Position numbers and translations under genes: made by a program. The notes beneath the pieces are model-generated. The model searched no databases and had not been told where the DNA came from. It was given only the letters and a program-made list of their open reading frames with translations. Of a DNA stretch of 64,000 bases, positions 22,284 through 23,434 are shown piece after piece; positions within the stretch are counted from its first letter, which is position 1, and the number at the start of each line of letters is the position of its first letter. Location of the stretch: NCBI RefSeq assembly GCF_054482595.1, contig NZ_CM137008.1. One strand, given 5' to 3'.

Positions 22284-22493
22284 TTAGTTAGAGTTAATTA
22301 GCTTATCAATCTCTGTAAGAGGTAAAGTTGTCACCTCTGCAACGTCTTCCCGAGACATCCCTTTACTTAGAAAACGCTGGGCGAATTCCTGTCTTACCTT
22401 CTGGAGTTCCTCTTGATATCCCTTCTGAAATCCCTTCTCTTCAAACCACTGCGCCAACGTCTGCCTGGTTTCTCTCCGTGTCTTTATTTCCAT
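22284..22493 (-). CDS. Orphan Rpn C-terminal tail-domain small protein (69 aa)
   Basis: MEIKTRRETRQTLAQWFEEKGF...KGMSREDVAEVTTLPLTEIDKLINSN aligns with the last ~50 aa of the upstream rpnC product (TLAQWFEERG...KGMSREDVAEMANLPLAEIDKLIN); AAGGGA upstream of ATG; DNA direct repeat with the rpnC 3' end. Confidence 0.5.
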   Translation of the reverse strand: MEIKTRRETRQTLAQWFEEKGFQKGYQEELQKVRQEFAQRFLSKGMSREDVAEVTTLPLTEIDKLINSN

Positions 22494-22561
22494 AGGTTCC
22501 CTTAATTATCTGGTCAGTTAACAATAACAATTATCTGGCTATAACTGATGATGCAGACAAC

Positions 22562-23434
22562 TTAGTTAATCAGCTTATCAATCTCGGCAAGGGGTAAATT
22601 TGCCATCTCTGCAACGTCTTCCCGAGACATTCCTTTATTCAGAAGACGCAGGACGAATTCTTGCCTTTCCTCCTGTCTTCCCCTCTCTTCAAACCACTGC
22701 GCCAGCGTCATCATAGACTCCCCTCCCGTTTCCCTGTCTCTCAGCACACCATAAAACAAATCCGCTTGTTCAGTATGACCGCGTTGCAGCATATAGTTTT
22801 GCATGGCAACTAACTGACTTCCGCTAGTGTACCCTTCGTCAATCAGCGTGACCAGTTGCTCCAGCAATAACATTAAGTCGCGCTGGCGAATATGCTTTTG
22901 CAGTAGTTCGAGAATCGCAATCCGCCGGTGCTGCATGATTTCGTCATCCGGTGTGATAGTGATATCCACCAGCGGAAAAGGACTGTTATAGACGCGTCGC
23001 GCCAGCTCCGGCGAGTAAAACATATCAAACCAGCACATTGAGAGCGGATAAGGTGTGGTCTCGCCCTGATAAAACAGTATCGGCACCACCAGCGGCAGCT
23101 TATCGTGATCCGCCTCCAGATGCCGGTGCATGGCAGCAATAGAATAACGCATCATGCGAAAGGCCATTTTCTTATCCGGCTTGCTTTGGTGTTCAATCAC
23201 AACATGCAGATAACCGGGATTGCCCTGCATTTGCACGGAATAGAGCACGTCCGTGCTGTGTCCTTTCAGGCTCTCTTCAATGAAACTCCCCGACTCTAAA
23301 TGAAGCGTGTTGAGGTCACAAAGTTCGCGTAATTCCACTGGCAAATGTATCTCCAGAAAGTCGCGAGCCGTCTCCGCATGCATTAAAAATTGTTTAAATA
23401 CCGCGTCATGCGGTGTAGTACTCGGTGCATCCAT
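22562..23434 (-). CDS. rpnC: Rpn-family (YhgA-like, PDDEXK) recombination-promoting nuclease
   Basis: 290-aa ORF recognised as the yadD/rpnC-type protein, located between panC and panD; N-terminal nuclease region plus short C-terminal tail. Confidence 0.85.
   Translation of the reverse strand: MDAPSTTPHDAVFKQFLMHAETARDFLEIHLPVELRELCDLNTLHLESGSFIEESLKGHSTDVLYSVQMQGNPGYLHVVIEHQSKPDKKMAFRMMRYSIAAMHRHLEADHDKLPLVVPILFYQGETTPYPLSMCWFDMFYSPELARRVYNSPFPLVDITITPDDEIMQHRRIAILELLQKHIRQRDLMLLLEQLVTLIDEGYTSGSQLVAMQNYMLQRGHTEQADLFYGVLRDRETGGESMMTLAQWFEERGRQEERQEFVLRLLNKGMSREDVAEMANLPLAEIDKLIN

Follow-up and report, generated by a model that had tools for sequence, protein, structure and literature searches.

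The short ORF between panC and rpnC in the analysed DNA (the window, 64,000 nucleotides in full) raises the question of whether it is a gene at all, and if so, whether its product serves the neighbouring RpnC protein. Rpn proteins form a recently recognised antiphage toxin-antitoxin system in which the antitoxin gene lies within the toxin gene, forcing the two to co-vary. A free-standing tail breaks this coupling, and its activity therefore bears on the evolution of Rpn specificity. The product could have RpnC, other Rpn proteins or phage as its target; or the ORF could be only a recombination substrate or a leftover. The locus is laid out as follows.

20534-21325, plus strand: panB (ORF listing).
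21337-22188, plus strand: panC (ORF listing).
22193-22223: hairpin with a 12-bp stem, the panC terminator, between the convergent panC and rpnCSs (terminator scan).
22284-22493, minus strand: rpnCSs, the 69-codon ORF, with an ATG start and a 69-aa product (ORF listing).
22562-23434, minus strand: rpnC (yadD), coding for a 290-aa PD-(D/E)XK Rpn nuclease (ORF, TIGR01784 and RefSeq).
23708-24088, plus strand: panD (ORF listing).

The ORF sits between rpnC and panC on the same minus strand as rpnC, 68 nt past the rpnC stop codon. RpnC itself scored 268.8 bits against TIGR01784, the Rpn family model (cutoff 52.1 bits). The region 22100-22800 (701 bp) is 100% identical to E. coli strain XH990, in which RefSeq lists rpnC as WP_000339964.1 and PGAP labels the ORF as a pseudogene ('hypothetical protein, incomplete, missing N-terminus'). 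Scanning 20000-26000 against Rfam, we matched no family.

Performing BLASTP, we find the 69-aa product to match the 56 C-terminal residues of RpnC, with 40 of 64 positions identical (63%, E=1e-21) and one 8-residue gap. The homology to the last ~50 rpnC codons that had been noticed from the letters of the sequence thus holds. The product also matches positions 213-273 of the 273 of TIGR01784 (E=2.8e-8), at a score below the curated cutoff because only the tail is present. Its closest database relatives are all Escherichia RpnC tails or free-standing copies.

The ORF is a known gene, and the sequence-only reading had correctly rediscovered it. Zhong, Hickman, Storz, Dyda et al. (2023, PNAS 120:e2307382120, PMC10400941) named it rpnCSs (Fig. 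2I and text). The ORF of the window lies directly downstream of rpnC, derives from its tail, occurs in some strains and varies by 4-aa units; it is the same gene, with no structural difference. According to the main text of that paper, RpnCSs clusters with RpnCS and is therefore derived from RpnC, the RpnSs proteins differ by 4-aa repeats too, and rpnCSs can disappear from a genome either through deletion or when the nuclease body becomes fused to it. Since its existence, origin and routes of loss are published, the window adds only a further instance of the gene. The main text of PMC10400941 contains no frequency of rpnCSs, no comparison of its repeat number with that of the co-resident tail and no functional test of RpnCSs, and we found nothing further on rpnCSs in the literature after that paper.

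The same main text describes how every E. coli rpn gene yields a small RpnS protein from an internal start, and how RpnS blocks the toxic full-length RpnL directly (PMC10400941). For K-12 rpnC, it reports an internal initiation site, a detected RpnCS protein and a short internal rpnCS transcript. The intragenic RpnAS and RpnCS share their domain with RpnCSs: a long helix bears variable 4-aa repeats, and an HTH part comes after it. Unlike the intragenic RpnS proteins, RpnCSs has a gene to itself, which supplies its own start and an 11-residue leader, and therefore it does not automatically co-vary with the toxin tail. In E. coli K-12, rpnE likewise has a free-standing copy of its tail downstream, rpnESs (ypaA). 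This gene occupies another locus and arose independently, RpnESs clustering with RpnES and RpnCSs with RpnCS in the published analysis; the rpnESs product was detected by SPA tagging, whereas the RpnCSs product is a predicted one (PMC10400941, main text).

We then compared the two tails at the DNA level. The features of the duplicated region are listed here.

22292-22461: distal direct-repeat copy (families D1 and D2).
22564-22709: proximal direct-repeat copy (families D1 and D2).
22292-22403 versus 22564-22675: direct repeat D1, 112 nt, 85% identical (repeat search).
22411-22461 versus 22659-22709: direct repeat D2, 51 nt, 80% identical (repeat search).
22437-22460, minus strand: distal TLAQWFEE box, ACGTTGGCGCAGTGGTTTGAAGAG (alignment); the proximal box, 22685-22708, is nearly identical.
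22494-22561, minus strand: spacer of 68 nt from the rpnC stop to the rpnCSs start (sequence).
22562-22714, minus strand: resident tail, the predicted intragenic rpnCS, 50 aa (sequence, database proteins and homology).

A direct repeat of about 22301-22460 and 22573-22708 at ~85% identity had been described earlier, which is essentially right in view of D1 and D2. The offsets of the two families are 272 nt (D1) and 248 nt (D2), and the 24-nt difference equals two 12-nt units, each coding for one 4-aa repeat. Aligning the repeat copies with MAFFT gave 82% column identity with one 24-nt and one 6-nt indel. The repeat extends from about the TLAQWFEE codons to ~17 nt past each stop codon; comparing different locus types, we find TAAGTTGTCTGC.TTAT 3' of both stops.

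The resident tail consists of MMTLAQWFEE, two 4-aa repeat units and the HTH part. It is preceded by GGGAGGGGAG at 22719-22728, and two database proteins (P0098 and P0101) start at MMTLAQ; the start codon of rpnCS in the window is assigned by homology. In the free-standing copy, this original internal start (GGGAGGGGAG-TCT-ATGATG in rpnC, a ribosome-binding site followed by ATGATG) is degenerate. The product of rpnCSs begins with the 11-residue leader MEIKTRRETRQ, followed by TLAQWFEE, four 4-aa repeat units and the HTH part. An SD-like AAGGGAA lies at 22497-22503, with its AAGGG core 5 nt upstream of the rpnCSs ATG. The 68-nt spacer that carries it has no counterpart in K-12 and is conserved across the E. 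coli and E. marmotae loci. Within the spacer (22506-22545), a 10-nt direct repeat, CCAGATAATT, occurs in two copies 15 nt apart. Three loci of a divergent haplotype with the leader MDITARRETRQ (L035, L036 and L040) hold one CCAGATAATT copy and a spacer 25 nt shorter; this single-copy form either predates the two-copy form or arose from it by slippage.

If RpnCSs were a back-up antitoxin of its neighbour, it would bind the resident RpnCL, add to the dose of RpnCS and make the toxin safer to carry. Such a role would fit its membership in the domain family of the RpnS antitoxins, the direct blocking of RpnL by RpnS proteins and the probable co-transcription with rpnC. The published repeat-insertion assay, however, sets a strict demand on such a pair. 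When one repeat was added to either RpnCS or RpnCL, the protection was lost unless both carried it, although this same-repeat-number rule was derived from one +1 repeat insertion, made in the K-12 protein, and may not extend to every combination of length and sequence (PMC10400941, main text). We therefore measured the variable helix, from WFEE to the conserved (L/F)LSKG, in both tails of each locus. The lengths in three backgrounds are as follows.

This window: resident tail 13 residues, free-standing copy 21 residues (two units longer).
ST131: resident tail 29 residues, free-standing copy 19 residues.
E. marmotae: resident tail 37 or 53 residues, free-standing copy 21 residues.

The two helices are unequal in 34 of the 35 distinct two-tail haplotypes. 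One haplotype had equal lengths as against 2.4 expected from random pairing (P=0.27). Active avoidance of matching, which we considered, is thus indistinguishable from random pairing; the two positions vary independently, with neither covariation nor avoidance. About half of the free-standing alleles (L004, L015, L027 and others) also carry a 6-nt deletion that changes KVRQEFAQR to KVRLAQR or KVRLALR. Their helix lengths are 3 mod 4, whereas the resident lengths are all 1 mod 4, so that, having lost two residues, they no longer keep the 4-residue register shared by all the RpnC tails seen.

These lengths speak against a cognate back-up antitoxin. In the published assay, one extra repeat abolishes the protection, blocking requires the same repeat number as in the toxin tail, and the window pairs a 21-residue helix with a 13-residue one. 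From the published rule and the mismatch, we thus predict that RpnCSs does not block the resident RpnCL. As helix length in one tail is statistically independent of that in the other, and many free-standing alleles are out of register as well, we regard the back-up role as quite improbable. The helix-length mismatch possibly is a new observation, as it may go beyond the main text of PMC10400941.

To see how the segment is distributed, we queried 5426 complete E. coli genomes with the spacer and leader (window 22470-22561). The segment is present in 1555 of them, essentially as one copy each and on chromosomes only, and it is missing from ~71%. All but two of these carriers (1553 of 1555) have the spacer and leader at 95% identity or more. 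In K-12, RpnC has 300 aa and the panC-rpnC gap is 73 bp; in the window, RpnC has 290 aa and the gap is 373 bp. The two suggestions made earlier, that the K-12 gap is much shorter and that the segment varies among strains, are both borne out, K-12 being among the genomes from which it is missing. The alignment against other genomes that had been proposed as a check turned up genomes with the segment, genomes without it and tails that would fit a fusion. A K-12-type tail end with its flank occurs at 95% identity or more in ~3036 genomes, and single-tail forms besides K-12 include O157:H7, APEC O1 and FDAARGOS_1279.

Free-standing copies also occur in E. marmotae and other Escherichia lineages, and public assemblies contain the exact rpnCSs protein of the window in 11,038 indexed blocks. 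The free-standing variants range from 57 to 77 aa, with 0, 1 or 2 KGFQ units and other unit changes. Matches of the segment to plasmids proved to be mislabelled chromosome-sized records or short unrelated pieces, and two matches of longer span, which could have been three-tail arrays (H52 and H45), were ordinary two-tail loci. No second copy of the spacer that could have been an outside source was found in the E. coli genomes. A scan of one genome per species yielded just the E. coli representative and a contig binned to Oscillospiraceae, and says nothing on the ancestral state. The rpnC-rpnCSs spacer, specific to E. coli, is present on this 4337-bp contig (CALXDF010000219.1, labelled 'uncultured Oscillospiraceae'), most likely through a binning error and not as an occurrence outside Escherichia.

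How could such a locus arise and be lost? A tandem duplication of the rpnC 3' end would have given rise to rpnCSs. The resulting order is the rpnC body, the two-unit tail, a stop, ~17 nt of duplicated 3' flank, and the spacer with its SD-like site leading to the ATG; then come the 11-residue leader, the second tail with four units, a stop and the shared hairpin beside panC. The original event may have been either a duplication followed by loss, or the insertion of a new tail ahead of the old one. Recombination between the repeats, for example at the TLAQWFEE box, would then fuse the nuclease body to the distal cassette and delete ~270 bp, and such a fusion would swap the toxin tail and the in-frame antitoxin in one step.

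Two loci look like traces of this exchange. At a metagenome locus (L081), the exact K-12 tail and its 3' flank, with the ending KVINLI, stand at the free-standing position behind the MEIKTRRETRQ leader; its resident tail is ST131-like, and its spacer and leader are the usual ones. At the FDAARGOS_1279 locus (L090), the single-tail RpnC ends in ...ATLSLTEVDKLINSN, with the KLINSN motif, an ending that among two-tail loci is found only in free-standing copies. The free-standing variants P0074 and P0066 match these tails of L081 and L090, and the L090 ending is nearly the same as that of P0066. As far as their sequences go, the two loci support the published route of fusion. The K-12 arrangement is what would result from recombination between the repeats, and the fusion alleles suggest the TLAQWFEE box as a candidate crossover site for joining the body to the distal tail. 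The sequence-only reading had proposed a spare or displaced tail cassette tied to recombination; L081 and L090 support this proposal, and PMC10400941 reached the same conclusions.

We next asked whether the ORF behaves like a gene. No sigma-70-like promoter or terminator was called in the spacer from the rpnC stop to the ORF start. Co-transcription with rpnC and with the internal rpnCS transcript is therefore the likeliest mode of expression, with translation probably beginning at the ORF's own start. The hairpin at 22193-22223 is kept in all locus types, and is the sole strong hairpin that the terminator scan found downstream of rpnC-rpnCSs. Between this shared hairpin and the rpnCSs stop lies a further inverted repeat (ACGTCAT-GGCGA-TGACGT, 7-bp stem, 22237-22255), present in the window and O157 types and missing from the K-12, ST131 and E. 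marmotae flanks.

RpnCSs would be a small, helical protein of the HTH_Rpn_C type whose long helix, which bears the repeats, mediates self-association. The AlphaFold2 model (30 relatives) has four helices with a mean pLDDT of 71, a moderate confidence. Over its last 41 residues, the model fits the RpnA-S crystal structure 7th0 with an rmsd of 0.8 A and a TM-score of 0.83 (target-normalised); the Foldseek E-value of 2.5 for this short match is not significant. Close variants have precomputed matches to PF27070 HTH_Rpn_C that are marked weak. Scanning the 69-aa protein against Pfam-A gave no significant match with a library that appears to lack PF27070, and a sequence search of the PDB did not recover RpnA-S, returning only a designed repeat protein (E=3e-6) with no individually significant stretch.

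We gathered the loci in two ways, by exact protein look-up and by matching a DNA pattern taken from the non-coding spacer ahead of the ribosome-binding site; the latter collection is independent of whether the ORF is intact. The ORF is intact and full-length in 38 of the 41 DNA-anchored loci that cover the whole region, and two of the three broken ones lie on contigs whose names give a coverage below 2x. Conservation of the ribosome-binding site, ATG and leader reaches from E. coli to E. marmotae, and changes in repeat number never break the frame. The indels are mostly 12-nt repeat units, however, which stay in frame even without selection. Counting segregating sites, we find nonsynonymous to synonymous ratios of 16:10 for the free-standing copy, close to neutral, and 10:7 for the resident tail (Fisher P=1). 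The pairwise pN/pS was 0.87 for the HTH part of the free-standing copy and 0.23 for the resident tail; a relaxed constraint on the former, which these values might indicate, is set aside in view of the like site counts. As the counts are alike and the region is too short, we draw no conclusion on selection, and purifying selection on the protein gains no positive support.

Intact ORFs, together with the conservation of start and spacer, favour a gene, while the near-neutral polymorphism and the in-frame repeat-unit indels could be compatible with a tolerated remnant. Under the latter reading, the ORF would be a functionless duplicated or displaced tail fragment, either unexpressed or expressed without consequence; it would persist owing to its shortness, to a recent origin in each lineage or to gene conversion that renews it from the resident tail. 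The PGAP pseudogene call in XH990 would agree with this, as would the lack of a promoter of its own, the decay of the tail's original ribosome-binding site and ATGATG in this copy, nonsynonymous and synonymous counts that are near neutral and like those of the resident tail, a helix length uncoupled from that tail and the absence of rpnCSs from most genomes. Yet the replacement start and the SD-like site are kept in all haplotypes, including those of E. marmotae, few DNA-anchored copies are broken, and the spacer has stayed nearly identical among carriers despite the hypervariable tails. Moreover, the analogous rpnESs (ypaA) product is made in K-12 (PMC10400941, main text). On balance, we consider a functionless remnant rather unlikely.

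Our preferred explanation, which we hold to be likely, is that rpnCSs is a free-standing duplicated RpnC tail, probably non-cognate to the resident RpnC, and forms the distal part of a two-cassette locus. The cognate antitoxin of the resident RpnC would then be the intragenic RpnCS, and RpnCSs probably would not be. Other systems offer an analogy. CDI (cdiA-CT/cdiI) and Rhs loci have spare variable C-terminal cassettes downstream, and recombination at a conserved box can swap the tips. The rpnCSs gene resembles these displaced cassettes in being a spare variable C-terminal cassette with a conserved box downstream of the main gene. It differs in that its cassette is the antitoxin and oligomerisation tail, whereas that of CDI and Rhs is a toxin tip with a separate immunity gene; the Rpn system is intracellular, whereas CDI and Rhs toxins are delivered, and there is no sequence relationship between them.

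Only tentatively do we suggest that RpnCSs is kept, though non-cognate, either as a stored alternative specificity cassette or as an orphan immunity protein or decoy against foreign Rpn toxins or phage anti-RpnS factors. In the first case, a lineage could change its RpnC toxin tail and the in-frame antitoxin at once, through recombination or gene conversion between the two tails. If so, the near-universal length mismatch would be a functional feature and not drift. Taken by itself, the orphan immunity or decoy role would have RpnCSs neutralise another Rpn toxin (from a plasmid, a phage or another rpnC allele) or titrate a phage factor that targets RpnS, by analogy with the orphan immunity genes downstream of CDI or Rhs toxins. 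That the ORF is non-cognate to its neighbour and yet intact and diversified would suit such a role, and the authors of PMC10400941 suspect, in their main text, that a phage factor drives the tail variation. Nevertheless, no partner toxin with a matching tail was identified and the segment turned up on no plasmid or phage, the plasmid matches being the mislabelled records described above; we would be greatly surprised if this role by itself accounted for rpnCSs.

Two further observations concern annotation and the neighbouring flank. RefSeq names for the rpnCSs ORF differ among genomes, from 'hypothetical protein', 'transposase' and 'RpnC/YadD family protein' to the incomplete pseudogene, and because these labels vary, annotation-based counts of rpnCSs are unreliable. 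The O157:H7 strain LSU61 (L003, 1290-1580) has no free-standing tail but has an unrelated palindromic element of ~130 bp adjoining panC. The core of this palindrome holds AAGTAAGTGACTGGGGTTAGCG and ATGTAAGCTCCTGGGGATTAAT, which we take to be the ERIC2 and ERIC1R primer sequences; on that assumption the palindrome is an ERIC/IRU element, and two unrelated expansions of the panC-rpnC region have thus occurred in different lineages.
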